Shown here one piece after another: positions 102 to 49,870 of a stretch of DNA of 64,000 nucleotides. Source of the stretch: Ginglymostoma cirratum (Eukaryota); the NCBI GenBank assembly GCA_024137785.1, contig JAHRHZ010000042.1, forward strand, positions 24,486,128-24,550,127. The letters are read 5' to 3'. Made by a program: the position numbers and the translations under genes. Numbering within the stretch: position 1 is the first letter of the stretch; each line of letters opens with the position of its first letter. The notes beneath the pieces were generated by a model that worked only from the letters and a program-made list of their open reading frames with translations, was not told the DNA's origin and did no database searches.

Positions 102-1226
102 TGCTCTTTCAAGTAGCTCTTTTTGCAGATTTTGGTTACAGAACAGAACACAGGCTTGGGAAGGCTCTCCTTCTGTTTCTCAAACAGTAAAGCACCCAGT
201 TACAGCCCTGACTGTAAAGTAACATCAGGAAACTCAGAAAATAAAAGACGGCTGCACCATTCACTAGTGTTAAGGTCCAAAAACTCAATTAGCCAATTAT
301 GGTCTCAGGTTAAAACCTTATGCCTCGAGGATACAAAGAAAACACAAATATGCATATTCTTTATATTTTATTTTCCTTTTGTACTGGGCACTAGCCCCTT
401 GTAATTTTGTACCTGTGCGTGAGGACATCAGTGGCTGCCCAGAGACCAGGTATTTGACATTGCATCTTGATTACTTTTATTTGGTGTCACCAGGTAACAA
501 ACACACACCTTTTCCAAATCAAGATAACCTTGTGGTTGGCTCCTTGCTGTTACAATTAAAAAAAAACTATGTTTAAATTAGAGAAAATTACATTGCTGGG
601 TGTTGAAAACAGCAGAAAGCTGAAAAGAAGGGAGCAAATTCACACCTTCTCACTTTGGCTATGACGTGATAACAAATGCCTTTATCAAAGCATTTGTAAA
701 TAATGAAATGCAAAGTTGTCTCAGGTAAAAGCAGGTCAACTTTTTAACTCTTTTTCAGGCTGAGTTGTTCATAGAATTGTGTCCCTTGCTACATTGTAGT
801 TATCAGATTTCAGGGCAAGGAGACAAAATCAAAAAAGATCACGCAGCGGCCTTGCTACACGGCAGCATCATTCTTATTTAAGACCAGATATGTCATGTTC
901 CCTCCCCATGGTTATCAATAGATTCCTCTTATACCACTGTCCACCTAGTTGTCATCACAGCTGTCAGTATGATCAGCTCCACTTGAGTCAAATCCAAAAG
1001 CTACAATACTTGGACTTCATCTTACTTCAGCTCCTATGTAGTTTCCTTCAAAACAGACAATAGAAAACTTTTCTTACTGTATTTTCCACCGGACTGGCAG
1101 AAGTTTAATTTTAAACCATTCTATATTTTTAAGAAACTGATTATGCAATTGTTTTCATTTCAGCTTCCAGCATTTACAATTTTTAAGAATATGAAGCTGA
1201 AATTGTTTTCTTTGAGCAGAAAGACT

Positions 1227-1742
1227 TACCAATTTTTATGGATGCACAATAGAAAGCATTCTACCTGGATGCATCACAGCTTAGTATGGCAACTGCTTTG
1301 CCCAGGACTGTAAGAAACTACAGAGAATTGCGAACACATCCCAGTCCATCACACAAGCCAACCTTCCATCCATTGACCCCATCTATACTTCTCTCTGCCT
1401 CAGGAAGGTAGCCAACATAATCAAAGATCCATCCCACCTTGGTTATAATCTCTTTCACCCTCTTCTATTGCGCAGAAGATACAAAAGCTTAAACAGGCGT
1501 AACAACAGTGTCTTCCCTGCTGTTATTAGACTTCTGAATAGGCCTCTCAAATTTTAAATTTGTTTTTGATCTCGCTCTTTATGGTCCTTCTCTGCAGCCA
1601 TAACGTTGTATTCTTCACTCTGTTCTATTTCACTCATGCACTTTGTGTGGTGACGACCTGCCTGTACTGTGCGCAAAACAAAACTTTTCACTGTACCTAG
1701 GTACATGTGGCAATAATAAATTGAATCAAATCAAAATCAAAA
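1227..1742 (+). mobile_element. 5'-truncated Rex1/Babar-like LINE 3' end
   Basis: Reads NFYGCTIESILPGCITA*YGNCFAQDCKKLQRIANTSQSIT, typical of the Rex1/Babar RT C-terminus; ends with aataaa and a (tcaaa)n tail. Confidence 0.75.
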
Positions 1743-1948
1743 TTGTCCAGTGAGCTGTGCAACAACCTGCCCCTGGGCAAGTTTCTCAATTGACAATAGT
1801 TCCTGACAGGAAACCCAAAATTGCCAAATTCCAAGCTGAGAAGGCACAGCCATGTTCCTCTTCTTGACTCACTTCCACCCTTGGTTGGCTGAAAAAAGAT
1901 TAATTTGCAAGGGAATAAAGCCCAAAGAACAGTGGATATTAAAAATCA

Positions 1949-2045
1949 GTTCTGAAGAAGGGTTACTGGACTTGAAGTGTTAACTCTGCTTTATCTCCAC
2001 GGATGCTACCAGACTTGTTGGATTTTCCAAAAACTTCTGTCTTAA
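1949..2045 (+). mobile_element. Degenerate short hammerhead-motif element (family D)
   Basis: gttctgaagaagggttactggacttgaagtgttaactctg...gatgctaccagac matches copies at 17.7, 18.7, 26.3, 28.2, 46.3, 52.0 and 55.7 kb. Confidence 0.7.
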
Positions 2046-3384
2046 TTTGAAAGGATCCTTTCTCCCAGATCAAAAAAAAAATTCATATCTTAAAAAGGGG
2101 GCAACTTAACAGGCTTCCTTGAACTAGCCACCAACTGGTTTCACTAATTACAAAAAAATTAAAAGAATGCAACGCACAAATAAGAAATAGGGAGCAAGTT
2201 AAAAATAAAATATGCAAATTAGTCTTCATCATTCAAGAAGAGTAGATTGTAGAACGTTGACAGCTGAGCAGTTAAATTTTGAAATTCTTGGTAGGTTAAC
2301 CAAAATTCTTTTGTCCTGTTTCGTATTGGACGGGCTGACTAGCTGGCTTCCAGCACTCTAAGCAAGAGAATCTTTCTTACATCCAGTCTCTTTCTGATTT
2401 GTTTCCAGTGAAGACACCTTTAACTACAATGCACGAGTATGAATATGCCAAGGGGGTCGTGTGTGTTAGCTTGGATTCAGGTGCCAGTGTGCTGTTAATT
2501 TCACAATGAGAGACCGATTCACCAGTCTCCCCTGCCTTGCAATAAAAAGGCATCACCCCTCCAACTGCTGGAAGCCGTTTAAATTTAAATCTCTAATCTA
2601 AAAAGAACGTTAGCTCACCTGCAAAGCCAGGAACCTCAAAATCAACTGTTCAAATGTTGACGTCCCATGGCATACTCTGTGCAAATATCCTAATGTACCC
2701 TCATGACCTCAAGTACTTTAACTCTAATCTTTATTTTTGGATCCTTTTGGATTTTGGATTCACATTTTTGACCTATATTTGCCCGTTGTATTACTGTTTT
2801 TTTTCTTCTAAATTGACTTCTTTTAAAACATGAATTAATTTAGTCTGGGAGAAAGTTATCCACAAGGGTGGGGGATCAGTTTTAAATTAACCTTGATATG
2901 ATAAACGGAGGGGGTGGGTGAATAAAGAAAAGTTCGCTTATCCATCTCCACATAAAAGCTCAACAATTTGGGGCATCCCACTTGGAATGGCAAGAAACTG
3001 GGGGAACCTCACGTGGAGAACTGATTGTATCATTTGGTAGGTAGGATTGGGGATGTAAAGGAACAGTGCTGACACTTCCAGTAGTTTTCGGAAGGGATTC
3101 TGTGAGGTGTCAAGATCAAGATAAGGGAGGCCTATTTTTATTTTTTGTTTTAATTTGCGAGCTGTTTAAAAGAAAAGCAAAACAACTTTTCTGTTCTGGT
3201 CCCATGAAGTTTCTCAAGTTCACCTGATTTCACATCTGTCTTTTACAAATACAAAAAAAACAAGTTGGAGACACAAGCTCTTTACAATCAAAAATAATGA
3301 CCTACTTTGAGGAAAAAAAAAGTCTAGAAATCTGCAAGGAATCTAACGATGAGAAGATAAATGATGAGGAAGTTGCTTATTTTA

Positions 3385-3497
3385 CAATATTTTCTAATCA
3401 ACCTGTTCAGAGATGTTATGACACAGCTGTGGAGCAGTTGACATCTCCACTTGGGATTTCTGGCTGAGAGACAGGGATACTACCACTGAGCCACAAG
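3385..3497 (-). mobile_element. Short tRNA-derived SINE (~110 bp)
   Basis: Minus strand reads ttgtggctcagtggtagtatccc (A-box)...cataacatctctgaacaggttgattagaaaata; related heads at ~33275 and ~55235. Confidence 0.5.
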
Positions 3498-5837
3498 AAC
3501 TCGAAGAAGTGGTTTCTTCATTCCTCTTGAGATCTGAAGGGGATTGACAAATTGTCACCATCTCCAAGCCTGATGCAACATGCGTTACTGGCCTCAACAG
3601 CCACAATGGTTTCGCTGTACCCCTCTTTTCGAAATGGCAGTCAGATTTGATGCCATCATCAGAATTTGATCTGCACACGTGAATGACCTCAGTGATTGCT
3701 GTTGGTGGCCCACTCTGTATTCAGTACAACAGGAGAACACCGGAGGTCAGAAAGGACAGTCAAAACAGTGCAATTAAGTCTCACAGGCCATTTTCATAGC
3801 AGTCTGGTTTCCACCAGGCACAGCTAAAATCCATTCTTATAACTGACAGATAAGCTTCAACACAAAATATAAGCATGTCAGGTTAACAATGCTGAATTAC
3901 TTGCAACATTAAATTACTGTCCAAAGAGAATCAACAAACTTCTTTTTTTGTCTCAGGCATCCCTCTGTGACAAAGGTCAGTGCAAATTCTACCGTACTGT
4001 GTTGTACTTACATGCTTTAGTACAACTACTTGCTGAAATGTTCTCAGTTGCACAGGCAAACAGAATGTAAATTGGAACTGGAGACTCTCAGTGCTAGAAT
4101 GTTAGCTGGACAAATAGCTTTTCTTCTTCTCACCCCATTACTTGGTTGGTGTAATTACTGGAAACACTGACTCACAGTGATCAAAGGAGAAATCTCATTG
4201 CATTTAATGTCAACCTCCCACATACATCATTTCATTCGTCTTTTATTAGCTGTTCAACTCATTCTCTGAATCCAATCACACTCACCATTGCACTGTTACA
4301 ATATTTTCCTGTCAAAAATTCTCATTCATTCAGAATGTCTCTGCCAGCTGTTACAGCATTGTTGGAGATGTTTAAAGAGTTCTCAAAACCAATAAGGAAG
4401 TCAGAGCATCTCATGAAAAAATCTGTAAGTCCCTTGGTAGTACAGAACTTGTCTATTGGTGAAAAGAGAAATGTGTTGCTCAAGCTTTTCATCTTTTATG
4501 CATCAGGACAAATGCAATAAAGCTGAATTCCAAATGACAACAATTATTTAATCCTAACAGGCATTTTCCATTTGGAGACTGGAAGAAAAAGTATCAAGAG
4601 TGAACTTACAAGTTCACCACATGCATCAACTAATGGCCAATTTTGCAGCATTGACAGGAGCCTGGGAATCTACTTGGCACTGGCAGCTGGAAAAGGGACA
4701 CATAACATTAAATAAGTACTCTTTGGGAGATAGTATCACAATAAAAAGGCGTTCCATCATGGAAAACCAGCGCAAAAGGAGAAAACAAAGGAAACACATT
4801 GTTTTTACTACAATTCATTTCTACTTAGACCATATTCAGTTCAGGTGGTTTGACAGTTTCATGACACCAAGGAGGAAAGCTGAATATTATTATTTCATGA
4901 TGCATCATGTTCATCTTTCAAATCATTTGTGTTGTGAATCTCTTTCATAAAGTCACGAGATAAAACAAACTAATGAAAATAAAAGGTGGCAGACACGTGA
5001 ACTCTCTAGAGCTAAACTTCTTCACTTTGCAACTTACAACCTACTTCAGAAAATGGCAAGAGATTTGTTGAATCTAAAGATAAATTAAAAGGGAGTTTGC
5101 TAGTTTAGAATAATGGAGTGCAGCTCCAGTAATTATGAGATTACCACCTTCTGCAGCTCAAACTAGTTTGGTCATTGACAGGTGACAGAAACCAATTTAC
5201 TGGTTTTATAACATAGTAAAAGTTCACATGTGGAAGTACAGCAAACTTTTCATTAACCTGCATCTATGGGACCAGGAATGTGCTGGTTGATTCCAGATAA
5301 TCAGTAGTCACGCATAACTGCAGTAAAACCTGACCAAGTGAAGCTTCAACACATCTGTGTAAAAAATAAGCACACCTCCTAAAATCAATATAAAAACACA
5401 CAGTAAGTGTTAGAAATGTAACGCAGAAGCTATAGACGTCTCTGTCATGCTTTATTGACAGCATAAATACTCGGACATCATAGTAGATTGCACTACCTGA
5501 GGTATAAAATTTTTGCCTGTTTATCAAGAGTGTCGGTTGATGAGGTGCCGGTTAGAATAAAGTTTCCTGTATTTTGTTCATGGATTAAACAAGCCAGCAA
5601 ACTATAACAATAAAAAAAAAAGCCAATAAAATTCTGTCACGTCCATTTTTCACACATGCATCAGAATTCCATGAAATGACCTCTGATGCCGATCCATGAA
5701 GCATTCAAATTTTAATCATGAAAATTCTTTATAAATATGCCAACTAAAATAAAAGAATGGAAGTTTTGACTCCACGTTGTCAAACGCTATAACATTATTG
5801 CATAGGTTCGGCATAGTGCTACCAAAATCGACGGCAT

Positions 5838-7125
5838 ATAACATAGAATAGTTTAGCACAGGAACCAGCCCTTTGACCCACCATGTCTGCGCAGAGCATA
5901 ATGCCATTCTAAACCAATCCCATCTGCCTGCACATGGTCCTAGTCCCTGTATTTCCTACCTGTTCATGTATCTATCTAAATGCCTCTTAAAAGTTACTAA
6001 CATTTCTGCTTCTACCACCTCCCATGGCAGCAATTTCCAGGCACCTACCACCCTTTTTGTGAGAACTTTCCTCATACGCCTCCTTTAAATTTTCCCCTCT
6101 CACCTTAAACCTATGTCCCCTAGGATTTGTTTGACATCTCCAGAAAAATACTCTGACTATCCACCCTACCTATCCTTCTTATAATTTTATATACTTCTTT
6201 CAGGCCACACCTCAGCCTCCAACACTCCAGCAAAAACAATCTAAATTCGTCTGACCTCTCCATGTACCTAATACACTCAAATCCAGGCAACATCCTCGTA
6301 AACCTCTTTTACACCCTCTCCAAAGCCTCCACATCCTTTTTACAGTGTGGCAGTCAGAACTGCACACAATACAGTACTCCAAATGCAGTAACGCTAAAGG
6401 TGCAACATGAGTTGCCAACGTTTATTCTCAATGCCCCAACTAATGAAGGCAAGCATGTTGTATGGCTTCTTTACCACCTTGTCCACTTGTGTTGCCATTT
6501 TAAGGGAGCTATGGATTGCAGCCAAGATCCTTCTGCGTATCAATATTTCTTACTGTGTACTTACCTCTTGCATTTGACCTCCCAAAATTCATAGCTCCAC
6601 ACTTGTCCAGATTAAACTCTATCTACCATTTCTCCATCCAACTTTCAAACTGATCTACATCCTTCTGTATCCTTTGACAACCTTCCTCACTATCCACAAC
6701 TCCACTCATTTTCATGCTGTCTGCTAATCTACTAATTGAGCAACTACACTTTCATATATGTTTCACAAACAACAGAGGTACCAGCACTGATCTTAGTGAA
6801 GCACAACTGATCACAGACACCCAGTCAGAAAACTGCACCCTCTCCACAACTACACTTTGTCTTTTATGATTTTGTATCCAACTTACCAACTCATCATGGA
6901 TCCCATGTGACTTAATCTTCTGCACTAGTCCACCATGACCTGACCTTGTCTAAATGCTGTTGTAAAGCACATGTGGACAATAGTCATTGCCCTACCCTCA
7001 TCATCATCTTTATCACTTCCTCAACAAACTCAATCAAATTTGTGGGACAAGACCTCCCCGACACAAAGCCAGCTGACAATCCCTAATAAGTCCATTCTTT
7101 TCCAAGTGCAAGTAAATTGATATCA
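5838..7125 (-). mobile_element. CR1/HER1-type LINE, 3' portion (RT C-terminus and 3' UTR), degraded
   Basis: Minus-strand peptide LHLEYCIV corresponds to CR1 RPHLEYCVQFW; short-repeat tail ttctatgt at 5838-5850; similar in reverse complement to 40.1-41.4 kb. Confidence 0.85.
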
Positions 7126-7271
7126 ATTGAATTCCTTGAATTTTACAAGCAGAAAGAAAATATTTGAACACTGCTAAATTCTCTTGGTAACACAAAGAAT
7201 GTAACCTATATCCTAGCAATGAGTAAGAGGAATATCTGAAAGGTTGGTCTAACTTCTGTCTGTTTACCTTC

Positions 7272-7800
7272 CCATTTCAGGAGGTCCTGTACCCGGTCAG
7301 AAACATCCATGACATTGGCACCAGGAGGCAACATACCATCCTCAAGTCTCTCTTGTGGTCACAGAAGCACCTTTCTGTGCCCCTGACTATTAAATCTCCA
7401 GTTATTCCTGTTCTACCATGCTTTATCCCTTCCCTCTGTACAGCAGGGCCAGCCGTGGTGCCATTGCTCTGGCTGTTGCTGCTGTTACCAAAATGGAATG
7501 CTTGTTTGGCAGGGGGGCAGCTGCAGGGGATATCCGCACTGACTGTCTGCCCTGTCCAGTGGTCACCCATCTATCTTCCTGTGCCTTGGGTGTGACCACG
7601 CTTCCATAACTTCTATCCATGACACTCTCTGCCATTTGTGTGCTCCTTTGGGTCTCTAACTGCCACTCAAACTGATCCATTCATTCAGTGACCTGCTGAA
7701 GATGGGTGCACTTGCTGAAGATGTAATTATCAGGGATGTTCTCTGCGTCATGATTGACCACATCTCGCTAAAGGAGCACAAAGTCCCACCAACTGATAGG
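7272..7800 (-). pseudogene. CR1 LINE ORF1 fragment (coiled coil plus start of SGNH-esterase domain), frameshifted
   Basis: ORF-track peptides VVTPKAQEDRWVTT, PLPNKHSIL and ITGDLIVRGTERCFCDHKRDLRMVCCL match the GDSIVRG...RMVCCLPGA motif of fish CR1 ORF1; same strand as 5838-7125, probably one internally deleted element. Confidence 0.75.
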
Positions 7801-9177
7801 ACTAAGCCTCTATTAGCTGTTAGATTACAAGTTAAATTTTAATTAGTTACCTAAACCTTAGTTATTCCTTTCTAAAAAATAGCACCACACACCCCACCCC
7901 TCCCCCCAACACCAACTCCCTGCACTAACCAGAAGACAAACTAACTGTATCCTTTAGAAAGACTGAGACATGCTTACCCTGCACTGCTGTGAAATTCCTT
8001 CATCTGTAGCACCACAGGAATGAACGGATTCAAACAAACTGGTCGTGACCAGACAGAAACCATGCTCCCTTTTCCCCCCGTGACATCAGCAGGATGAGTG
8101 GTTGCTGGCTCGCCGTGAAAGCAACACGCCTGACCCGAAACTAGGCCCCAGAAACTCCGCGTTCAATTTTAAATCTGCGCCGGTTTAGACTCCTCCATTC
8201 AGCTCCTGCTGCTAGCTCCTCCTAAAAAGGAACGTGCCCCAAACCGCAACTGAAATGTGCAAGCACGATGAGCTTAGTTTTAAAAAGGAATACTTGATGG
8301 TTGGGCGTGATTGCTCTGTATGAGATTTTTAATTCAGCATTACATCTATGGTTAAAAAATTTGTAAAATTATTGATTCAGTTGGCCAATAGGATTGCCTC
8401 CATTGGTAGTGCAGTCATATTAGCCAATTACAGCCAGTTTAGAAAAAAGACCCATTGATTTCCTTCTGTTTCCCTCCTCATACTCCTCCCCTCATCTTTG
8501 AACTCCTTATCTTCTCATCATATACCCCAAAACCAATGCCGATGCAACATGCCATATTATTCCCCACTGAGTCTATCAACTTTTAAGTCGTAGAAAGATC
8601 TTCTATGAACACAGCAGCAGCTTGCAGAAACCAGCCAGCAGCGATTTATGTGAAAGTAGTTAAAAAGCAGTTTAAAAAGGACCAATGCGGGTGAGCTAGG
8701 GCTTGTCTTCCTGCATCTTCAGCAATGCCGAGTTAACAGAAGGTTGGGGCACTCAGGTTCCAAATGGTGGTGCTGGCATCAAGTAAGCATGACATGTTGA
8801 CAGACATCACCCCCCTGTTACTTATTTACTTACTTACAGGCATGATCTCCCTATGCCTGTTCACAAGACAGACGTAAATGAACCCAAAATGGCACTCGTA
8901 GCACTGAAAATGTGGGAGAAGGCAACCAAATAGGACACATATCCTCATATCTGCTGTGAAGCCCCTCATCTCCACTCATCACGATTCAACGGGCTTGCTG
9001 AAATGCAGACTCAATGGAAAAATAAGGAAGCAAACCTAGGTCCTTCTACCTATCTGCAGAAAAGCTGCTAAACTGTAATCTTAGATAAAAGGTACTGCAG
9101 ATGCTGGAGAATCCGAGATAACGAGCATGGGGCTGGATGAACACAGCAGGTCAAGCAGCATCATCGGAGCAGGAAAA

Positions 9178-9211
9178 CTTGACGTTTCGGGCCTAGTCCC
9201 TTCATCAGAAA
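9178..9211 (-). ncRNA. Minimal type-I hammerhead ribozyme motif
   Basis: Minus strand: TTT-CTGATGA-A-GGG-ACTAGG-CCC-GAAA-C-GTC-AAG; full catalytic core, GUC triplet, weak 3 bp stem I. Confidence 0.7.
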
Positions 9212-9214
9212 TGA

Positions 9215-9248
9215 TTTCTGATGAAGGATCTAGGCCTGAAACGTCAAG
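9215..9248 (+). ncRNA. Minimal type-I hammerhead ribozyme motif
   Basis: TTT-CTGATGA-AGG-ATCTAGG-CCT-GAAA-C-GTC-AAG, back to back with the minus-strand copy. Confidence 0.6.
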
Positions 9249-9260
9249 TTTTCCTGCTCC

Positions 9261-9660
9261 NNNNNNNNNNNNNNNNNNNNNNNNNNNNNNNNNNNNNNNN
9301 NNNNNNNNNNNNNNNNNNNNNNNNNNNNNNNNNNNNNNNNNNNNNNNNNNNNNNNNNNNNNNNNNNNNNNNNNNNNNNNNNNNNNNNNNNNNNNNNNNNN
9401 NNNNNNNNNNNNNNNNNNNNNNNNNNNNNNNNNNNNNNNNNNNNNNNNNNNNNNNNNNNNNNNNNNNNNNNNNNNNNNNNNNNNNNNNNNNNNNNNNNNN
9501 NNNNNNNNNNNNNNNNNNNNNNNNNNNNNNNNNNNNNNNNNNNNNNNNNNNNNNNNNNNNNNNNNNNNNNNNNNNNNNNNNNNNNNNNNNNNNNNNNNNN
9601 NNNNNNNNNNNNNNNNNNNNNNNNNNNNNNNNNNNNNNNNNNNNNNNNNNNNNNNNNNNN
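9261..9660. other. Assembly gap (400 N)
   Basis: Run of n. Confidence 1.
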
Positions 9661-11590
9661 GGAGCAGGAAAACTTGACGTTTCAGGCCTAGATCCTTCAT
9701 CAGAAATCATTTCTGATGAAGGGACTAGGCCCGAAACGTCAAGTTTTCCTGCTCCGATGATGCTGCTTGACCTGCTGTGTTCATCCAGCCCCATGCTTGT
9801 TATCTCTTAAACTGTAATCTTAACTGTTTTCACCTTTTACGATTTCCGATTTTGCAATTTAACAGACAAAATGCAGCATGTTTGATGCAACACATAGTTG
9901 GTCAGCCAATGTCAGTTTGAGGTTATAAGACATGTTACGGCTTACAGATTTTCAAACATTATGTCAAGAAATGTTTCATTTTTCCAGAATTCATATCCAC
10001 ATTAAATAAATGCAACATGTAATTAAGTGGCAGGTGTGAATTTAATCCACTATACTTGGGGGCTTTTGGGATGTTTGGAGTGTTTGCAAAAAAAAATGGT
10101 TTGAATTTGAACCTGGCTGTTGTCACTATGACTTTTCATAACATTGAAAAAACTGCATACTGGTCTGCAAAAGTTTGTTTTCATTCTGAAGGAAGTATCC
10201 GTCTGTAATGCATCAAAGAAACTGCACTGAAACTGTGCAAAGATGGGATACAAGATGACAAATTTAGGTACACAGCGCATTAGTTTAATAGTCCATTAAC
10301 ATTAGAGTCATTGCTCCCAGTCTTACCATATCTAGATGGAGAAATGCAGTTTTCAACATTTAATAACCGTGACATGCTGCCATTTTGAGCAATTTTACCT
10401 CAAGTAATAAGAAATTTAATATGAATTAGAGGGAATTGCAAAGTCATTCCAAAAGCTCTGCAAGATTACAGCAGTACAAGCTGGTTGAAACAAGCTGACA
10501 CTTTCCAGTGCTCTCACATTGAGCTGGATGTGTAAGTACTGCCAGACAACCAATACTGACAGCCTTGTATAATATGGTTATCAATCTGCTAACAGGAGGT
10601 TGTAATATGCACTGTGAAAAGCATGGTCTGGTCATATGAGATAAATCACTCATTTCAGAGATGGCTGTTTAATCAATGTTAATTTGGCAACACAATTTCC
10701 TTCTCTCAAACAAAATTGCTGGGATTAGTGGCAAAATGTTATCAGCAAAATCAACCGCTAATTTTCATCAAATGGAAAGTAATTAACATTTGCTGCCTAT
10801 GAAATTACTGTATTAATGTGTATGCTGCACACACACACACACAAGCATACATGCTTGTCAAGCTGTTGAAAAAAGGACAAATTTGCAATTGTGTTTTCAT
10901 AAATGACTCAACTACATGTTATTGAAATCAGCCGGTTTGAACCTCTACCGCACTGTTAACAAGAGGCAGGGAGATTAATTGCAACCCAGAACTGTAAAAG
11001 GCAGAAAAATGTCAAACAAGCTACAACATTTGAAATATGAAAAGCCAGTGGCTTTGAGTCTGCAGTCATTCAGCTGAATGCTCCTTTCCTTGGTGAACCT
11101 TTGGACCTGTTCTTTCATGACACTCACTCACAGACTTTCCATGGGTTTTTACAACTTAAAATCCAAGTGAATCAAAAGTGCCCTCTGCACTGTATCAGAC
11201 CTGTGTGTCGAGGGAAAACAACTGTATGTCTAGCTTGATGATTCTGATCTACAAATCCGTAATAAGCAATGCAAGGAATAAGCCAGCGAGTTTCAATTAG
11301 AATAATTAACAAAGCAAATTGAAGGCAGGAAAACAAAGATTGGATGAAGAAAGGTAAATTGGAATGCAGAATGCACGAGAGGAAAACATTTTTTTTCTTT
11401 TTCTTCATCTCTAACAATAGCATAAATCTCTCAGAATTAGACTTCACATTTAATTTTCATTGCCAAAGAGATTAGGTAGAGATAGTCTAGACTAAGACAG
11501 GAAAAAATTTTGTTCTGCTGATATGATCAAGCTTAATTTTTTTTTTAGTTGAGGTTAGTGCTTGGATCAGGTCCATACAGAGTTTGACAC

Positions 11591-15234: not shown

Positions 15235-15375
15235 AGCATGATCTATTTGTTCTTCTGCAATCAAGAAAAGGATGCCAGCCATTTTCAGAAAGAGGAGGCG
15301 CTGGTGTTGGACTCGGGCGGACAAGGTCAGAAATCACACGACATCAGGTTATAGTCCAACGGGTTTATTTGAAAT

Positions 15376-15410
15376 CACAAGCTTTCAGATCCTCTCTCCT
15401 TCTTCAGGTG
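15376..15410 (-). ncRNA. Minimal hammerhead ribozyme motif in family C PLE terminus
   Basis: Minus strand: CAC-CTGAAGA-A-GGA-GAGAGGA-TCT-GAAA-GCTT-GTG; stem I cac/gtg, palindromic AAGCTT. Confidence 0.6.
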
Positions 15411-15994
15411 TTAGTGAGAGAGGTAGCATCAGGCACAGAATTTATCAGTAAAAGATCAAAGGGTCACACCACTGATCAGGGTGTATGAAACAAATCTGAG
15501 ATGCTGTTAAATATTTAATCTGTTAGAAGATTTTAATTGATTAATAGTTATATGTAAATCCCTGAAGTTCTTTTCAGTCACTGTCCTGAGAAGACTAAAG
15601 GTTTTATTAGTGGAAAGAAGAGGTGACATTTTAGGTCAGACAACGTATGTTAGGTGTGAGGTCTTGTTTAGAATCTGTTTGTGTTTTGCTTTGGAGTCAG
15701 ACTGGTTTTATTTCTAAAGTAGGAATTTATAAAACACCACATTGACTGACTATCTATAAATTGTGTGCTTTTTGAACAAAATAGAATGTATCGGCAAATA
15801 CAAATTCACCCCATAGATTTGTGTGTGTGTGAGAGAGAGAGAGAGCGTGTGTGAGGAAGAGAGGAAGAGAGGAAGAGGGTGTATGTGTGCACACTTGAGA
15901 GACTGTGTGTTTGAGAGAGGATCTGTGACAGTTTGTGTGAGTGAGCGTGTATGTATGTATGCATGCTTGTGTGAGTGTATAGTGTGGTAGGATC

Positions 15995-16830
15995 ACCTGC
16001 AATGTGACATGAACCCAAGGTTCTGATTGAGGCTGTTCTCATGGGTACCGAGCTTGGAGGAAGTTTACGAAGATCTGAGGCTGAATGTCCTTGACATCTG
16101 AATTGTTCCCCCACTGGAAGGGAACATCTCTGTCTGGCAATTGTTGCGTGGTGCCCATTCATCCATTGTTGTCGCGTCTGCATGATTTCGCCAATGTACC
16201 ATGCCTCGGAGCATCCTTACCTGCAGCATTTGAGATAGACAACATTGGCCGAGTCACATGAGTATCTGCTGTGCGCATGGTGGGTGGTGATCCCACGTGT
16301 GGTGCTGGAGCCCATGTTGATGAACTGACATGACTTGCAGAGGTTGCCATGACAGGGTTGTGAGGTGTTGTGGTTGATGTTGTCCTGAAGGCCGGGTAGT
16401 TTGCTGTGAATAATGGTCTGTTTAAGGTTTGGTGGTTGTTTGAGGGAGAGAGGTGGAGGCGTGGGGAAGACCTTGGCGAGGTGCTCATTGTCATCAATAA
16501 TGTGTTGAAGGCTGCAAAGAACATGGCATAGTTTCTCTGCTCCTGGGAAGTATTGGACAATGAAGGGCACCCTATTGGACGTATCCCATGTCTGTCTTTA
16601 CGGAGGTGGTAATGGTTTGTTGCTGAGGCACGTCAGAACTGGCAATTGGTGCATTGAGCATCATATCCTGTTCCTATGAGGACGTCCTTCAACACCTTCA
16701 GGTGTCTGTCTCATTCCTCCTCATCTGTACAGATCCTGTGTATGTGCAGGGCTTGTCTGTATGTTGATATGTTTTAATATGGAAGCTACAGAAGTGCAGC
16801 ATCGCGAGGTTATCCGTGGGCTTGTGGTAG
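15995..16830 (-). pseudogene. PLE RT C-terminus, Cys linker and GIY-YIG endonuclease, frameshifted
   Basis: YHKPTDNLAMLHF, QALHIHRICTDEE, PFIVQYFPGAEKL, PCHGNLCKSC, YSCDSANVVYL..C, MQTRQQWMNGH across several frames. Confidence 0.85.
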
Positions 16831-16850
16831 AGTGGGCTTGTGGTAGAGTG

Positions 16851-17325
16851 AGCAACAAACTACCTAGCCTTCAGGACAACATCAACCACAACAACTCACA
16901 ACCCTGTCGTTGCACACTCTGCAAGTCATGTCAGATCTTCGACACGGACACTACCATCACACGTGCGAACACCACCCACCACATGCACAGCAGATACTCA
17001 TGTGACTCGGCCAATGTTGTCTATCTCATATGCTGCAGGCAAGGATGCTCCAAGGCATGGTATATTGGCGAAACCATGCAGACGCTACGACAATGGATGA
17101 ATGGACACCACGCAACAATTGCCAGACAGGAATGTTCCCTTCCAGTGAAGGAACACTTCAACGGTCAAAGACATTCAGCCTCCGATCTTTGGGTAAACGC
17201 CCTCAAAGACTGACTTCGGGATACACAACAACCCAGAGTCACTGAGCAGAGGCCGATAGCCAAGTTCGGTCCCCATGAGGACAGCCTCAACTGGGATCAT
17301 GGGTTCATGTTGCACTACAGGTGAC
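16851..17325 (+). pseudogene. PLE Cys linker and GIY-YIG endonuclease
   Basis: PCRCTLCKSCQ...YSCDSANVVYLICCRQGCSKAWYIGETMQTLRQWMNGH...PVKEHFN: VVY...YIG motif with Cys-rich linker as in Neptune-clade PLEs; premature stop at 17211-17213. Confidence 0.9.
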
Positions 17326-17667
17326 CCCACCCACACTTTACACACACACACACACACGAATCTGTATTCGCAGATACGTTCTATTTTGTTCAAAAAGCAC
17401 ACAACTTCGAGATAGTAGGTCAATGTGGCATTTTTATAAATTCCTACTTTAGAAGTAAAACCAGTCTGACTCCAAACTAAAACACAAACAGATTCTAAAC
17501 AAGGTCTTACACTTAATGTGCATTGTCTGACCTAAAATGTCACCTCCCCTTTCCACTGATAAAACCTTTAGTTCCCTCAGGACCATGAGTTGAAAGGAAT
17601 TTGGGGATTTACATATACATATTAATCAATTAAAACTTGGTAACTGATTAAAGATTTAATAGCATCT

Positions 17668-17769
17668 GTTCTGAGGAAGGGTCACCGGACCCAAAACGTT
17701 AGCTCTGTTTTTCCCTTCACAGATGCTGCCAGACCTGCTGAGCTTTTCCAGCAACTTTGTTTTTGTTCC
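17668..17769 (+). mobile_element. Family D mini-element inserted into the family C right arm
   Basis: gtt-ctgagga-a-gggtc-accg-gaccc-aaaa-cgtt; imperfect TSD taatagcatct (17657-17667) / taacagcaact (17770-17780); absent from the left arm. Confidence 0.8.
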
Positions 17770-17938
17770 TAACAGCAACTCAGGGTTGACTAATACATCC
17801 TGATGAGTGGTATGGCCCTTTGATTTTTTACTTATAAAATCTGTGTGAGATACTACCTCTCTCAGGGTTTGAGTGAAGATTTGTAGTTTGGGTGCTGGTT
17901 ATAGATGTTGGTGTGTTTGCTGAGCTGGGAGATTTGAT

Positions 17939-17980
17939 AGCAGACATTTCGTCCCCATACTAGTTGACATCCTCAGTGCT
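17939..17980 (-). ncRNA. Minimal hammerhead ribozyme motif, family B
   Basis: Minus strand: AGCA-CTGAGGA-T-GTC-AACTAGTATGGG-GAC-GAAA-T-GTC-TGCT; perfect 4 bp stem I, 3 bp stem II, GUC triplet. Confidence 0.75.
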
Positions 17981-18676
17981 GTGGAGCCTCCTGTGAACTG
18001 CTGTTGTCTTGTGCCGGTTTGAATTTATATGGCCTGGTTTTTGCTGCTTCCAGTAGGTGCCAGTTCCAGCAATGCTTTGTAATGGTCGGTATTCAGGAAA
18101 TCCACACATACTGACCAGCCCTTAAACTAGCACTGCAACGCCCCAACTCACACAAGAGGAACTGCATTAGGACCCTGGTTAAAAGGGCCTCTACACACTG
18201 CAACACACCTGATCTGCAGAAGGAAGAAGAACACCTCTATGAAGGTCTTTACCAGGAATGGATACCCCCGCAGCTTCACCCACAGACGCCTAGCCAACAG
18301 ACAACACAACCAGGACACACCAAAACCTGAAACAATAACCTCCATACCATACATTAAAAAAAAACCTCAGAACTGACAGCCTTACGACTCAGACCACGAG
18401 AAATCATGACAGTACACAAACCGGCAGCCACACTAAGACAGCAGCCGACCAGAGTTAAAGACCCAATAGATACCATGGACAAGACAAGTGTGGTTCACAA
18501 GATACCCATGCAGAGACCTCACAAAACACTACGTGGGACAAACAGGCAGACAACTAGCAACCCGCATCCACAAACACCAGCTAGCAACTAAATGAAACGA
18601 CCAGACATCCTTGGTTTCAAAACACACAGACAAGAAAATCCACACTTTCAACTGGGACAAGACTACTATCTTTGGC

Positions 18677-18912
18677 ACAAAAACAGAAGTTGCTGGAGAA
18701 GCTCAGCAGGTCTGGCAGCATCAGTGAAGAAAATATCAAAGTTAACGCTTTGGGTCCGGTGACCCTTCCTTAGAGCTCAGAACTCGGGTCACCGGATCCG
18801 AAACGTTAACTTTGATATTTTCTTCACCGATGCTGCCAGACCTGCTGAGCTTCTCCAGCAACTTCTGTTTTTGTTCCTAATTTACGGCATCCATAGTTCT
18901 TTCAGTATTTAT
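18677..18912. mobile_element. Palindromic family D mini-element inserted in family B GIY-YIG region
   Basis: acaaaaacagaagttgctggagaagctcagcagg... mirrored by ...cctgctgagcttctccagcaacttctgtttttgt; tail on right arm only. Confidence 0.85.
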
Positions 18913-19126
18913 TGCTTTCATCAGACAAGTTAAACAGAGGACAGCCAGGGAATTCTTGGAGGATTGGCATTCGTCCACAGAATTCATCAACAAATACATG
19001 GAATTAGACACGATATACCAACCATTAGAACGCACAGCCAGAACCAGCACCTACCAGAAGCAGCAAAAACCAGGCTATATAAATTCAAACCGGCACAAGA
19101 TAACAGCACTTCACAGGAAGCTCCAC

Positions 19127-19168
19127 AGCACTGAGGGTGTCACCTAGTAAGGGGACGAAACGTCTGTT
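19127..19168 (+). ncRNA. Minimal hammerhead ribozyme motif, family B (A9 changed to G)
   Basis: AGCA-CTGAGGG-T-GTC-ACCTAGTAAGGG-GAC-GAAA-C-GTC-TGTT. Confidence 0.6.
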
Positions 19169-19211
19169 ATCAAACCTCCCAGCTTGGCAAACACACTAAC
19201 ATCCACAACTA

Positions 19212-19472
19212 GAGATAACAAAGTGCAGAGCTGGATGAACACAGCAGGCCAAACAGCACCAGAGGAGCAGGAAAGCTGATGTGGGGGCCCATTTCTGAAG
19301 AAGGGTCGAGGCCCGAAATGTCAGATTTCCTGCTGCCCATTTCTGAAGAAGGGTCCAGGCCCGAAACGTCAGCTTTCCTGCTCCTCTGATGCTGCTTGGC
19401 CTGCTGTGTTCATCCAGCTCTACACCTTGTTATCTCAGATTCTCCAGCATCTGCAGTTCCTCCGATCTCCGA
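19212..19472. mobile_element. Palindromic family A mini-element with two tandem hammerhead motifs
   Basis: TSD aacatccacaacta (19198-19211) / aacatctacaacta (19473-19486); inverted arms; CTGAAGA...GAAA cores at 19295 and 19343. Confidence 0.85.
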
Positions 19473-19674
19473 AACATCTACAACTACATCTCTCACTAAC
19501 ATCTTAAGAAGGAGAGAGGCTCCGAAAGCTTGTGTTTTCAAATAAATCTGTTGGACTGATGTTGTGTGATTTCTGACCAACATAAAGTGACACATATGTA
19601 CAACTGACACAAAAAAATACTTGATCGAAGAATTTTAAAGAGCATCTTAGTCGAAAGGGCTAATGGATCTCGAC

Positions 19675-24790: not shown

Positions 24791-26317
24791 GTTAAGCAAA
24801 GCAGGACTGTAATTAGGAGGAATTAGCAGATGAATTCTCCCCCATCCAGGTGATGGGCTACGTATATCTGTTGCTCTGTTTTTCACTCACCGGTTTAACT
24901 GATCAAGTTGTGCAGAACATTTTTAACCGAGTGAATGAATTAGCTATCACTCCAGTTTAATATTAACTGGCAAATTGATGCAATCGGCCAGTTTTAGAGC
25001 ATTGATGAGAAAGATATCACTGTATGTTCTTAAACCTATCAGATAATCTTTAGCTCACACTTCAAATTTTTCACAATATTTTACTGTTTGAAGAAACACA
25101 TCTCATTTGTTTTCGTGATGACGGTAAGTGCTACTTACAATCAATATTTTATGAAACATGAATATACAATCCTACTGGAAAAACAAGTTAAAATAGATTT
25201 TCCCGATTATACAATTATCGAGTAATTTGACATCTTTCAGTAAATGCCCATCATGGTTAGGTATAAATAGCTTTAAGAGCAGTCACATCTTCTAAATTGT
25301 GTCAAATATACAGCTTGCAAGGGATTGTCGAACAATCAATTCATGACTTAAACAGAAATCATTACATCTGGACCTAAATCTGTAAAGGAGCACAGGTAAC
25401 ACAACTGGTTTTTCTCAAAATTATAATCTGAATGCCTGCTTATATTTTAGTGCCATTGTACATGTTTTAAAAAACTGAATTTATAAGATAATACATTTGA
25501 TTCATTAGGGGATCAATGAAACCCAAAAACATTTTGGGTTGTAAGTGCTTCAACTCAACTACTTCAGTTCCAACAACTTCCAGTTTAAAAAAGGGAGCCA
25601 CATAGTGCTTGCAATCAATCCACTCTCACAAACTGGGCTGTCTATTTAAATATTTAATTGAGACTTGATGCTTCACAGTTCAGATTCATTGTGAATTTAG
25701 TGCTAGCCAGCTGTGCTTCTTATCCTTCATAAAACCCAGCAACTAAAAGGAAGTGAGGGACGCTGCTGAATGAGATTAGATGCCTTCCCAGTACTGCACG
25801 TGGGCCAGGAGAAATAGCTATAATTCTTCCTAGTCTTCAAGCCTTCCCGCAATTTGACCTCAAACATACAGCTCCACCTCTTACTTGGAAAATCCACTCC
25901 ATTGAGCATTCAGGTGATTGAGATTTTTGGCGTGATTCCTTATCGATGGCAATTTTAAGGAGTCTAGGATGAGTAATCATGAGGATGCCAAGCACAATTA
26001 CTGCAGTCACTTCTTAAGCAAATGATGATGTGTGTTCTTTTGTGGGATTTAGTCTACCTCTAATCCTTCAGATTCAAATAAGTATGAATAATTCTGTGTT
26101 TCGATGGGCACAAGAATACTTTCACTAGCCCTCTACACTTCTGATAGGGACATAGGATAATAAAGAAAAAATTCTAACCTTGATCTCTACGGGACCTTTT
26201 TCCTATTTCTACAAAGCTTCACACCATCAAACATCTTTCATATTTCAGCCAAAAAGCTGGATTCCGCTCATTAAGTGCAGGATGTACAAGTACAGAACAG
26301 TAATGCATTCATAGTGA

Positions 26318-26487
26318 AAACGGAAAGAACAGCGGATGCTGTAAATCAGAAACAAAAACAGAAATTGCTGGAAAAGCTCAGCAGGTCTGGCAGAATCTGT
26401 GAAGAGAAATCCGAATTAATGTTTCAGGCCTGGCGACCCTTCTGCGGAAGGTGGCCCTTTTGAGGAAGGATCATCGGACCCAAATGT
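26318..26487. mobile_element. Family D mini-element with short inverted end and 11 bp TSD
   Basis: attcatagtga at 26307-26317 and 26488-26498. Confidence 0.8.
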
Positions 26488-28160
26488 ATTCATAGTGATT
26501 GTTCACTAGGCAACTCTTACAAAAAAAAAAATTCTCAGTACAAGGGTAGTAAGCTATTATTTTATGAATAACTTTAATAAATCGTGTTATTCCTTTCGTG
26601 TTACACTTTCCTACGAATTGATGAGATCTATTGCTCTCTTAAATTCCATAACCAACTTTATGACTTCAACAATTCAACTGACTCATCTACTCCAAAGGTT
26701 GCCATTTCTTGTTGAATTTAATTATCTGTCGGATCGATACAAATGTGGTAGGCATTCGTATAAGTGCATCAATTGCTCAGCTAATTCACCTTTAGAATAC
26801 ATGGCTTGATTCCTTCCCGAAATAAATTCCCTTGGATAATCCAAAAAATGTTATACACAGTGGGGCCTCCATTAGGCTAAGGGAAATCAGCCTAAATGTT
26901 AATGTGGAGCTTACATGTGACATTTGGACACCAGGGCGACTTGGAAACATTTATAATGGTTCTAGAGTGAGGCTTGCTTTACTTTAACTTCCCTAGCTTC
27001 AAAAGAATGATCAAAGGTCACTTCCACCCAAACACAGCAGAAAAGATGAGTTTCGACCAGAAAGTAACCTCAATGCCAAGTTTCAGATTCCTGAGTGAAA
27101 ATCTCATCCTTGACGTTTGACAAGGAGTCAGAGGCAGTGGAAGGGCTAAGAGAGTGTGCAGTGAGTGTTGTCAGCATAATCATGGGACTTGGAATGTTAT
27201 ATGTCTGAATGATGATGATACTCCAATTTGCCTTTTTCAACAGTCTTCTAATTCCTTTAGTACGATCTATTTTAAACTTGGGATATAAGTGCATTTGCGA
27301 GTAGATGGCAAATAGGTAGAAAAGAGAAAGGGTTCTGTTTGATTTTCAAGGAAGGAATTCAGACCATTTGACTTTTCCTCAATTCTAACTTGACAATTGC
27401 AACCTGGTGGAAGGTGGTGACTTGGCTTGATTCTTTCTTACGCCTTTGGTCAGCCACAACAAAAGAGTTGTAATTATTTTAGTGTGCAGCTATAATCAGA
27501 CCAATTAGGATGCAGTGCCAGTTCAATTTTTTTTAAAATTGTAATCGGAACATACATGTTTTCTTGAATGAAAGAAAGAGAAATTTTATCACTTCGTAAC
27601 CCCAAGAAAAATAACAAAATACATGGTGGGCATACCCACAAATACTGGTATAAGGTATACAGAGAAAAGAACATCTCAACGAAAAAAGGAAGGTCAAGAA
27701 CGTGCAGTCTAAAAAGTGCTCAGATTCCTTGAGGTGATACATTTCAATGTGCAACCACAGTTGCTTAATTGACGTATGCTCGGTAGTGTCCTAATTTGTC
27801 AATAGCCTGGAGCTCTCAATAAATGTTTTGTTTTTCACTAAGCCTTATCACTGGGCACTGTGATTTCAGAGAGACTGAGAAAAACTGGGAGAGACAGTAA
27901 GCCTTCCAGTCCTAATGTTATGAATTCATTTCTGTTCTCTCTGCTTTGCCAAAGAACTGTTGGTTGAAATATAGTCCCTTTATATCTCCATGTGTGCTTT
28001 CATTGTTTATCCCAAGGCAGATAATCTGAAGGCAACTTTTATCACAATATGTGAAACTTCCAGGAGGGTATAAATCAAACATTGGATACAGATCTCAATA
28101 ACAGTGTTTATTAATGGTTTCGTGAGGTTCATCAATTAGGTCAACCAACTACTGTGGCCA

Positions 28161-28379
28161 CAAAAACAAAGTTGCTGCTAAAGCCCAGCAGGTCTGGCAG
28201 CATTTGTGAAGGGAAAAAACAGAGTTAACGTTTCAGGTCCAGTGACCCTTCCTCAGAACCCGACCCGAGACGTTAACTCTGGTTTCTCTTTCACAGATGC
28301 TGCCAAACCTGCTGAGCTTTTCCAGCAACTTTGTTTTTGTTCCTGATTTAGAGCATCTGCAGTTCTTTTGGTTTTTATT
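28161..28379. mobile_element. Palindromic family D mini-element with 14 bp TSD
   Basis: aactactgtggcca (28147-28160) / aactgctgtggcca (28380-28393); inverted arms; tail on right arm only. Confidence 0.85.
28224..28259 (-). ncRNA. Minimal hammerhead ribozyme motif, family D
   Basis: Minus strand: GTT-CTGAGGA-A-GGGTC-ACTG-GACCT-GAAA-C-GTT-AAC; stem I gtt/aac, 5 bp stem II, palindromic AACGTT, GUU triplet. Confidence 0.7.
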
Positions 28380-31300
28380 AACTGCTGTGGCCATCTCAGC
28401 TCAGTGGTTTTTCCTTTTGAAAAACATCTTCATCAATGAAAGGCCCCAGCTCGTAAAATCAGATGATGGAGGCTAAAAATTCATAATTAACTTTTACCAC
28501 CATCGTAAAGTTTTAAAGTTTTAAATTCACTATGCTGTAACTGTCAGCTCCTTGATTTACAAGTTGTGGTCAAATGATGGACCAGCATGGACCATGGCAG
28601 GCAATGAATCCGTTCACCGCCAGCACGGAAAGAACTCAACAAGAAAAAGGAGACTATCCAAAAACATAATCTGTGGCAAACACACAATGGCCAGCTTCCA
28701 GAGCTGACAGCACAATGGAAGACCCTCCAGCAAACTACAGAAGACAGCTCAGTTGGCAATAAGCATTTATGCCCCATCAGATAATGCAGAACAGTGTGCA
28801 CTGGAACTGGTTCACGTGTGTTGCATTTGTGCTTATGACTTTTAATAATTTGTTAAGGAGTCTTATTGATATGGATTAGGTGAAATGAAAAAAAAAAAGA
28901 ATATGCTCCATTGATTTGCAGAAGAAATAACATAGCTGGCCTGAAGTGTGGGATAATGTTGCCCGTGATAAGACAAATATAGGGGCACTGGGTACCAGCT
29001 TGCAGAGACAGCTATGATCACCCACTAACAATGCTGCTGACTTAGACTAGAAGGCAAGGATTCTGAGTGCATGTTTGTCTGTGTGTGTATATGCACTCAC
29101 ATCTGTGAATGTATGCTGCATGGGCAAGAGACAATTATGCTAAGAAATTTGTCGTTAAACCATCTGCTTTTTTAGTTGAGTAACTTAAGACTCTGACTGT
29201 GCTGTAACATTGCCTACAGTCAAAATGCAAAGGGTCACATATGAGATTGTATTGCTTCTGTTGACAGTAAAATGAGAGCGGACAGAACAATGAAGGACAA
29301 AGCTCAATAATACTTCAGCAGGAAATGCTCCTTCCCACAGAATACAGGATTATTGTGTATCAAACTCTCTGGAGGACTGATTAGTTTGCAAGAGTTGCTC
29401 CCTTGAAAATTTGTGGTTACAATGTCAGAAACATTCCATATTTCATGTAGAAAACTCTGCAGAACTAAGGAACAAGGCAAGGACAGTGTTTTTGACTTAG
29501 TATTGGCAGTTCATCTATCTGATTCAAATGATGTACAGCAGCACGAAGAGGAATAGACAATTAAATATCCTTCAATTAGTTTGTGGCAGCATTCCCAGGA
29601 TTCTCTTGTTTCTCTACTTCAACGAAAAACACTCTCAACCCTGTACTCTAATGTTAACTGTTGATAAAGGACTCATTGTCCATTTATAGTTTTATTATTT
29701 GTGGAGGCACTTCTGTGCAGATAAATTACTTTGGGTAGATGAGTTGTTGATCTTTGGTGACTATTTTAGGGCATGTTTGCAAAGAAAATGAACAACATTT
29801 TGGAAATTGTCAGGAAAACAACACATTGAGGTTAACTTTTTTGTAGCAGTGTGCAAATGAAAGAAGCAAGGCACATTATAACTGAATAAAGTGGTTTTCT
29901 TTAACCATTTAATATTCTGAGGATATCTTTTAAAGCAGTGCGCTGATTATTGTACAAAATTACACATTCAGTCTGTTCAGCGCATGCAATGAATGCCAAC
30001 ATTTATGACACTCACCAGCATCCTCCCACTCATTTTAACTGACAACTTACAAACCCATCCCTCATTCTTAAACCTCAATTCCTTCTATCCCTTTCTCTCT
30101 CATGTACTTCCTCACAAGAATGAATAGGGTATAATGACTCCGTACGGCAGGGACTTCCACCGTCTGATCATTCCCTGGTGGCCTGTCTGGGAGGTTACAT
30201 AACGAAGTGAGAAAGCTGATTCTAACATTCAATACCAATTGCAGAAAGGGATTGTTAACCAGGCATCAAGAACTTTGTGGTGTTTACAAGAAATCCAGAA
30301 TATAGGTTAAAGCCAAGTGCCAATATTGGCAAGGCACAGCTTCAGGTGCATTTCAGGTAACCTTGGGACACAGGGCATAATCCCCAAAATTCAACTCTTC
30401 TGTACTTTGTCAAACATGGGAAAAAGGAAGGTTGAGATCCCATTTCACTGCTGCCTACGCATATGTAATCTGGGATATTCTAAATGGTTTAAGTGATTAA
30501 TAAAATGTTCTAAATTCATTTCTAAAAACTGTAAATTGAATAAAACAGCTAAACAAGTGTCTAACTCAATGATCAAGTCAATACAATGAAACAATCTGAA
30601 ATTCAGAATTCTCTCTCAAAGCCTGCCAATATAGATATCGATGGGGAAAGCTGCTTTAAAGAACATAAGTCTGGCATCATGTTTGATTTGGCACATAGTG
30701 CGAGTGGGGACTGAGCAACATGGGTAATTGTAAAACTTGTGGCAAATTACTTCAGAACTCTGGAAAGAGCTGTTTCAACATCAGGAGCATCTTGCTGCAT
30801 CTTTTATTCTTTTGGTGAGGAATGCAGTGAGCTTTTCACTACGCACCATCATTTGTCAATTAAGGTGGATTATGGATTGTTAAATGTTTCTTGCCTTGTT
30901 CACATTCAATTTTCCACCATAACAAACAAAACCTTGACATGGAAATTAATGTAGCTACCTGGCAACTCCAGCTCACCATCTGCTCCAAAGAACCTCTATG
31001 TTGGACACCAGCCACTGACATCTCAGGAAATGCCATACGAATACCAGCATCCCGTGTCCATACCTATTGGCATCCAACATGTGCCTGCCTCAATGAACCC
31101 TTACGGCACATCTTCGATTCTGTACTCCAATGCTGCAAGGCCAGCCACCTTTGCAGCAAGGACACTTTGTGTTCAAGGACACACCACCAGCTCAAGTACT
31201 GGACCAGGCTCCATGACCAGGCTCTTCACTTGCTATCATAGTGTACACATTCATGCTAAACCTATCTGGATGCTCACAACATCCCTGCCATTGTCCTGTT

Positions 31301-46226: not shown

Positions 46227-46303
46227 AATGTTTGTTGCAATCCTTATTGTGCAAATAGCACAAATGCAGCATCACTCGTAAAACATAAGAGCAGAAAAAC
46301 TTT

Positions 46304-46398
46304 TGTTCTGATGAAGGTTCACTGGAATAAAAATGTTGACTCTGCTTCTCTCTACAGATGCTGTCTGACCTGCTGATTTTCTTCAGCACTTTGTTTGT
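46304..46398 (+). mobile_element. Degenerate family D mini-element
   Basis: gttctgatgaaggttcactgg...aaatgttgactctg...cagatgctgtctgacctgctga. Confidence 0.7.
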
Positions 46399-46402
46399 GT
46401 AA

Positions 46403-49770: not shown

Positions 49771-49870
49771 AAGTTTTCCTGCTCCTATGATGCTGCTTGA
49801 CCTGCTGTGTTCATCCAGCCCCATGCTTGTTATCTCGGATTCTCCAGCATTTGCAGTACCTTTTATCTCT
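49771..49870 (+). mobile_element. Family A mini-element (subtype nearly identical to the 9.1 kb copy), lacking the ribozyme core
   Basis: aatattaa at 49765-49772 and 49871-49878; body is the reverse complement of 9083-9180 with about three differences. Confidence 0.85.

Follow-up and report, generated by a model that had tools for sequence, protein, structure and literature searches.

The insertion units of EN+ Penelope-like elements (PLEs), as described by Arkhipova et al. (2013, PMC3846280), carry an inverted pLTR, a 31-bp tail at one end, a target-site duplication (TSD) and palindromes at inverted junctions. Such inverted structures are reported to disrupt short-read assemblies by a source that also describes the PLE insertion cycle as still undefined (PMC8557442). 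Opposite-strand pairs of minimal hammerhead ribozymes, 100-700 bp apart, are described from truncated PLEs in Schistosoma (Cervera and De la Pena 2014, PMC4209133), and the non-LTR retrozymes of animals are described as tandem repeats in direct orientation, every unit of which has a hammerhead (bioRxiv 10.64898/2026.07.22.740005). For PAc, the Poseidon PLE of Anolis, two internal start sites of reverse transcription with the tail lying between them have been reported, along with cutting and extension of both target strands in vitro and the use of uncleaved RNA as the main template (Frangieh et al. 2024, PMC11167929).

The locus at 9069..9822 of the window (the whole stretch of 64,000 nucleotides of nurse shark, Ginglymostoma cirratum, DNA that was analysed) very probably consists of two short pLTR pieces of an EN+ PLE placed head to head, about 229 bp in all, as the dead-end product of a single event. 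The insertion is real, but as an inverted copy pair from a PLE family that is young and abundant it is ordinary, and its architecture is one already published. Head-to-head inverted pLTRs, a 31-bp tail at one end, a TSD and assembly trouble are shared with the EN+ PLE units described in PMC3846280 and PMC8557442; unlike those units, the copies at the locus are cut to about 100-130 bp with no ORF between them, and the copy number is very high. The TSDs of the nurse-shark hairpins span 8-16 bp, against 8-10 in the rotifer examples given in PMC3846280.

Exact 15-bp direct repeats at 9069..9083 and 9808..9822 (both plus strand) enclose 177 called bases, 400 N and 147 called bases. The repeat is a true TSD, as the earlier note on this DNA had proposed: a 3,039-base contig of runs X1, X6 and X7 aligns to 8700-9083 (11 differences, 2 gaps), and in the related runs X6 and X7 it is listed as continuing into what lies 3' of 9822, an empty site with the 15-bp repeat present once. 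Inward from the left copy lie a 31-bp PLE tail (9084..9114, minus strand), which is found on the left arm only and matches the 3' extension of long copies, and then the tailed arm (9115..9212, minus strand), a pLTR piece whose start, at an ATTT hot spot, lies 4 bases ahead of the hammerhead core. Over 131 bp the tailed arm shares 96% identity with the 3' terminus of an ORF-bearing copy, L024. The single unpaired central base, 9213, is either a genomic C before the ATTT of one arm or an added G before the ATTT of the other. The start of the second arm, with a plus-strand hammerhead motif read from the sequence, occupies 9214..9260 (plus strand) and is interrupted by the run of 400 N (9261..9660). 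Beyond the run, 9661..9755 is a flipped second reading of the central 95 bp (the reverse complement of 9166-9260), and the tail-less arm (9709..9807, plus strand; 97% identical to L024 over 99 bp) stops at the first of the two usual 3' ends of the family.

A self-comparison of the locus shows the inverted arms that the earlier note had described, though of unequal length; where they meet at the centre they differ at 3 of 47 bases. The nine-base spacing that it gave for the opposite-strand cores is likewise seen, with the minus motif at 9212-9177, the plus motif at 9214-9249 and AAATGATTT (9209-9217) between the two CTGATGA boxes. The assembly as given, however, holds four hammerhead cores and not two, the central 95 bp standing on both sides of the gap, and the statement that there is no ORF holds for the 354 called bases, the other 400 of the 754 being N, of which the note made no mention.

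In exact-match counts over the whole assembly (4.36 Gb in 289 pieces), a 31-base piece of the arm is found 51,102 times and a 19-nt core anchor 77,283 times. Of 52 arm instances sampled for context, all from the first contig, 31 extend upstream into a UTR rich in C, 16 end no more than 7 bases from the core, gaps interrupt 4, and the remaining one is other or unclear. Long copies lead into an ORF with an RVT_1 domain (E 1.7e-7, locus L121) and a GIY-YIG endonuclease domain (E 1.2e-4, just at the curated cut-off, locus L192); these frames, each upstream of that arm sequence, belong to other copies and not to the hairpin. At L178 and L201 the arm runs directly into the N-terminus of the ORF, in L178 as arm plus tail. 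The arm is thus the pLTR of an EN+ Penelope-like element, found both after and before its ORF. A CxxxxCxxC linker between RT and endonuclease, recognised by eye, suggests by comparison with the description in PMC8557442 that the family belongs to Neptune. The family resembles PAc, as reported in PMC11167929, in having two probable RT start positions with the tail between them, and differs from that Poseidon element in its CxxxxCxxC linker.

The common subfamily haplotypes occur alike in hairpin, solo and long copies (250 distinct arms, a sample biased by the search patterns). In proposing a MITE-shaped, PLE-mobilised, retrozyme-like class, the earlier note was right that the hairpins are PLE-made and have no coding capacity, but a separate replicating class is not supported. 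Hallmarks of a fixed, MITE-like unit (constant length, matching termini, a shared internal junction and a lineage of its own) were not found, since the arm ends differ and vary, the junctions are diverse and the haplotypes are common to long copies. Direct tandem hammerhead units, the hallmark of non-LTR retrozymes, are absent from the site, where the cores are inverted. The locus is like the non-LTR retrozymes described in bioRxiv 10.64898/2026.07.22.740005 in being non-coding, PLE-derived and equipped with a type I hammerhead, and unlike them in being an inverted pair with no fixed unit.

The minus-strand motif (9177..9212) has the form of a minimal type I hammerhead, with stem I AUUU/AAGU, an extra A after the CUGAUGA box, a palindromic ACGU instead of stem III and a predicted cut after 9181. 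The hallmarks of PLE minimal hammerheads are present: the core boxes, one additional base following position 9, helices I and II, and a palindromic remnant of helix III. The metazoan PLE hammerheads described in PMC4209133 are likewise minimal, of type I and placed in the pLTR, with an extra base at 9/10.1, a short helix I and palindromic 15.2-16.2. The Schistosoma pairs in the same source differ from the pair here, which is 9 bases apart and has stem II damaged in both cores (the minus core has one mismatch, the plus core one mismatch plus two G-U pairs). Over 14 window copies the three proposed helices have 84.6% of cells paired, against 8-51% when they are slid; covariation is weak, with double changes at 3 pairs and an equally high value in 205 of 500 shuffles. 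Rfam at gathering scores has no match within the window, and with E up to 10 over 9661-9830 it yields generic miRNA-model hairpins far under their cut-offs and no hammerhead family. According to PMC4209133, PLE minimal hammerheads are inactive in vitro as monomers and weak as dimers.

Gaps were surveyed at 33 exact-junction loci, namely 32 taken from the 339 genome matches together with the window locus. Within 150 bp there are exactly 400 N at 23 of the 33, longer runs at 4 and none at 6, and the 6 gap-free loci are single hairpins of about 180-235 bp with TSDs of 12-15 bp. The flipped doubling of the centre is also seen at the gapped loci L003, L007, L013 and L155. Because gaps adjoin 27 of the 33 exact-junction loci and the central 95 bp is doubled, we infer that the true element is probably one hairpin of 129 + 1 + 99 = 229 bp and not of about 750 bp, although a longer or doubled hairpin may exist at this locus. 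The 400 N are probably an artefactual gap of fixed size at an unresolved palindrome, not real bases, and 9661..9755 is probably the same DNA as the centre, assembled twice. In practice, short-read assemblies double such hairpins around 400-N gaps, and so inflate both length and ribozyme count.

The 5' ends of the copies have a hot spot beside the ribozyme core. At the position 15 bases upstream of the core, where intact copies have only pyrimidines, 15,756 of the 77,283 copies (20%) have a purine; because only about half of unrelated flanks show a purine at the tested position, roughly a third or more of all copies would end just before the core. Copies primed further into the leader respect the boundary too: among 30 of them, 6 start at -2 or -3, 1 at +2, 3 further upstream and 20 within the arm. 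Hand counts, which cover the first 100 matches listed per search and the first contigs only, were made of the base before ATTT where it is not C: of 100 matches listed, 71 have G, 25 have A and 4 have T, while G at an internal control position is found in 29 of 100 matches listed. Dropping 19 rows with a possible small-duplication source leaves G before ATTT in 52 of 81. A fourth T is present in 19 of 163 short copies versus 0 of 64 long copies, and in 10 of 100 among the matches listed in the purine search; only 22 long-type matches to it are found genome-wide.

Judged by these ends, the cDNA runs off the end of its template at the ATTT site, and the hot spot would be the 5' end of the element RNA. 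The site resembles an initiator consensus, and the boundary predicts a transcription start there. An RNA cap can be copied as an extra G. The extra G here need not be a cap copy, because R2 RT is reported to add G and T without a template to 5' junctions in vitro (PMC13000458). In the literature searched, largely that outside subscription journals, we found no published mapping of such a 5' hot spot in PLEs.

Cleavage by the ribozyme was considered as the cause of the hot spot and rejected, the main peak lying at -1 to -7 and the cut site at +28. Apparent starts at the cut site number 1,074, against 293 at a control 3 bases upstream, a comparison confounded by a local palindrome and by deletions: of 30 loci inspected, 6 are folds on a local palindrome of 6 bases, and among 100 matches listed 12 look like single-base deletions. 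The location of the boundary away from the cut site agrees with the uncleaved-RNA template reported in PMC11167929. A separate proposal, that long copies arise by a jump from a short cDNA to the RNA's 3' end, is disfavoured, as the extra T is nearly absent from long copies.

At the other end of the arm, the 3' ends cluster near +90-99 and near +125-133 in long, solo and hairpin copies alike. Exactly one arm is tailed in 48 of 53 ungapped hairpins, both are in 5 and neither in 0 (p 4e-10 versus 50%). When the two arms of the same hairpin are compared at polymorphic columns, 18 of 234 comparisons are discordant; about 40% would be expected from unrelated templates. The differences include subfamily alleles at position 57 (A/G; 8 of 53 hairpins) and position 44 (A/C; 6 of 53, this position having been chosen after looking); for both, the background is 6% of columns with any difference. 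Rare variants common to both arms were found at 22 columns in 10 of the 53 hairpins, several of them being older-subfamily states. T-run length is equal in both arms of about 20 of 23 symmetric junctions (hand count, among matches listed). The low discordance and the equal T-runs suggest a shared template for both arms in most hairpins, though the agreement of T-runs is only partly explained.

The exact junction of 9069..9822 has 339 genome matches, duplicates across gaps included, and makes up about 8% of the 4,482 matches to two cores with a 0-16-nt spacer. In a hand count of the first 50 places among the matches listed there were 29 different spacers in 43 loci. Asymmetric hairpins are far more numerous; they account for 13 rows (12 loci) among 30 loci with an arm starting just before the core, their partner arms starting at -5, -3, +6, +28, +32, +33, +47 or +65. 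The pairs L022/L023 and L034/L035 have the same head-to-head build, with arms hundreds of bases long and a TSD around the pair. Twelve ungapped two-core hairpins, with TSDs of 8-16 bp, include no left-right arm difference common to two hairpins, and the exact junction is present on old, middle and young subfamily backgrounds. It is likely from these patterns that hairpins formed anew many times and are not one lineage. The exact junction would recur because solo copies share the 5'-end hot spot, both cDNAs stopping there.

The earlier note had set junctions that recur identically, as in a replicating unit, against unique junctions on the 3' ends of autonomous PLEs, as in ordinary inverted insertions. 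What was found largely agrees with the second, the 29 kinds of junction in 43 loci and the PLE origin of the arms speaking against a lineage, although with 339 matches the junctions are not all unique. The similar hairpins that it listed at seven other sites in the window fared unevenly: five have an inverted self-match (18671-18880, 19212-19436, 28160-28340, 47104-47254 and 55881-56060) and two, at 26318 and 52005, do not. The junction of 9069..9822 is absent from all seven, and the core pattern scan finds no opposite-strand core pair there.

A mechanism that would produce such hairpins begins when the element's RT-endonuclease nicks one target strand and, about 15 bp away, the other. Within the leader of the RNA a cDNA would be primed from either nick, one at the near start (about +95), without the tail, and one at the far start (about +130), with it. 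Both cDNAs would continue as far as the RNA's 5' end, placed 4 bases ahead of the hammerhead core, and their ends would then be joined with zero to a few bases added or lost. As both cDNAs would stop at the same place, both would hold the whole ribozyme motif and a few junctions would recur. In the 5' inversions of L1 elements made by twin priming, the second primer pairs with an internal part of the same RNA, which yields non-overlapping segments. The events proposed here would be like L1 twin priming in joining the ends of two cDNAs from opposite target strands, and unlike it in that both cDNAs copy the same stretch and so give a palindrome. The locus has its value as a record of mechanism, its family providing tens of thousands of young copies in which a 5' boundary falls sharply at the base of hammerhead stem I; the family-wide boundary and the one-tail rule make a modest, testable contribution to the understanding of PLE integration.

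The same PLE origin could be combined with a second arm made by self-priming, the first cDNA folding back on one template, in place of a second target-primed cDNA. Such a model has been published for rotifer Penelope palindromes (PMC3846280), and it would suit the matched T-runs and the fact that the arms mostly carry the same subfamily alleles and sometimes the shared rare variants (the 22 columns in 10 of 53 hairpins). Against it, in L022/L023 and L034/L035 it is the arm without the tail that extends further 5', the short arms mostly stop at a start site that solo copies also use, centres with 0-1 unpaired bases would be difficult to produce by folding back, and the arms differ in the alleles at positions 57 and 44, which later gene conversion could explain. 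We regard fold-back as unlikely: the sharp boundary, the added G or T, the one-tail rule and the discordant arms speak for two target-primed cDNAs made on uncleaved RNA and against antisense self-priming.

Less likely still is that the hairpin itself replicates as a non-autonomous unit, with transcription from either side and the PLE protein copying all of it. The 339 exact junction matches would fit such a unit, copying of a hairpin RNA would also yield one tailed and one shorter arm, matched T-runs and alike arms would be expected of it too, and in rotifers pLTRs alone are reported to be enough to mobilise a host gene in trans (PMC3846280). This idea is nevertheless already largely refuted, given that the junction is only 8% of comparable hairpins and stands on subfamily backgrounds of every age, that the 12 ungapped two-core hairpins have no common left-right asymmetry, that solo copies have the same 5' hot spot, and that the Anolis RNA is reported to require about 50 bases past the RT starts (PMC11167929), a part that the hairpins do not have. 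It is somewhat easier, if still unlikely, to suppose that, because the tailed arm has the RNA start, the ribozyme and both RT starts, short copies and hairpins are transcribed from their own start and serve as SINE-like templates, two-nick priming on a single RNA or on two rebuilding the hairpin at each insertion; there would then be a non-autonomous cycle with the arm as its unit and tens of thousands of copies, a genome-scale fossil record of PLE integration. It is extremely improbable that library preparation or short-read assembly created the entire palindrome around a solo copy, for although gaps adjoin most exact-junction loci and the central part of this one is doubled, the 53 ungapped hairpins have diverged arms, the 12 with two cores have TSDs of 8-16 bp, and at the locus itself the outer ends differ by one tail, 3 of 47 bases are unlike between the central arms and the TSD agrees with the empty site. 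The reading as pLTR pieces joined head to head in one event keeps its place as the best explanation.

The earlier note had also expected a long double-stranded RNA hairpin if the locus were transcribed through, and the predicted fold bears this out. The fold of 9115-9260 has a calculated energy of -90.5 kcal/mol (z -13, matched by 0 of 200 shuffles), and a single arm folded alone is not above shuffles (z -0.38). In the predicted fold of the read-through RNA the sense core would be buried inside the helix. Palindromic repeats are described as editing targets in other animals (PMC5625713), and thousands of near-perfect 200-bp palindromes may supply substrates for RNA editing where they lie inside transcripts. 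Four contig runs, whose RNA nature is a guess, give patchy cover of 1000-9083 with no clean splice joint, and over that interval they contain two T>C differences, each in a single contig.

Short copies of the PLE terminal repeat often have their first ~7 bases repeated as a small direct duplication (for example at the fetched genomic loci L068, L235 and L248), as if the cDNA end had realigned on the template and then been extended anew, a behavior that would recall repeat addition by telomerase. CTG stands directly 5' of ATTT, the hot spot of 5' ends four bases before the hammerhead core, in 19 of 100 short-copy rows among the matches listed. ATTT also begins the 3' pLTR piece of an ORF-bearing PLE copy (L178:1500-1640, near 5612600 of contig G000:C3), where the piece is fused to the RT region, directly abutting its middle; this joint suggests a template jump from a short cDNA to the ORF.

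A solo tailed copy of the young subfamily, the same as in the studied hairpin, lies on the plus strand at window 49771-49874, and its 5' end either coincides with the position where the ribozyme is predicted to cut or is one base off. In the young subfamily, an extra A after the cut site, at arm position +29, brings stem I to a full 4 bp, where the older state has a mismatch. A second hammerhead-bearing PLE end family, more diverged than the young one, is also present in the window, with copies at 1945-1985, 17669-17767, 18671-18880, 26317-26450, 28160-28380, 46301-46403, 52025-52196 and 55699-56126. Its stem II is longer than that of the young family, and a stem I pair that is U-G in the young family is G-C at the same place.

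The fold-back at window 19212-19477, of the older subfamily, carries two plus-strand cores as a 48-bp direct tandem (19287-19382), an arrangement that could give an active double hammerhead. Long inverted repeats are nested across 15353-19557 (16070-16406/16853-17189, 15499-15734/17432-17667 and 17895-18092/19015-19212), and are probably longer inverted retroelement insertions, one within another. Within 46403-47993, the small fold-back at 47104-47254 sits between two inverted arms, one 225 bp and the other 76 bp long (92-94%).
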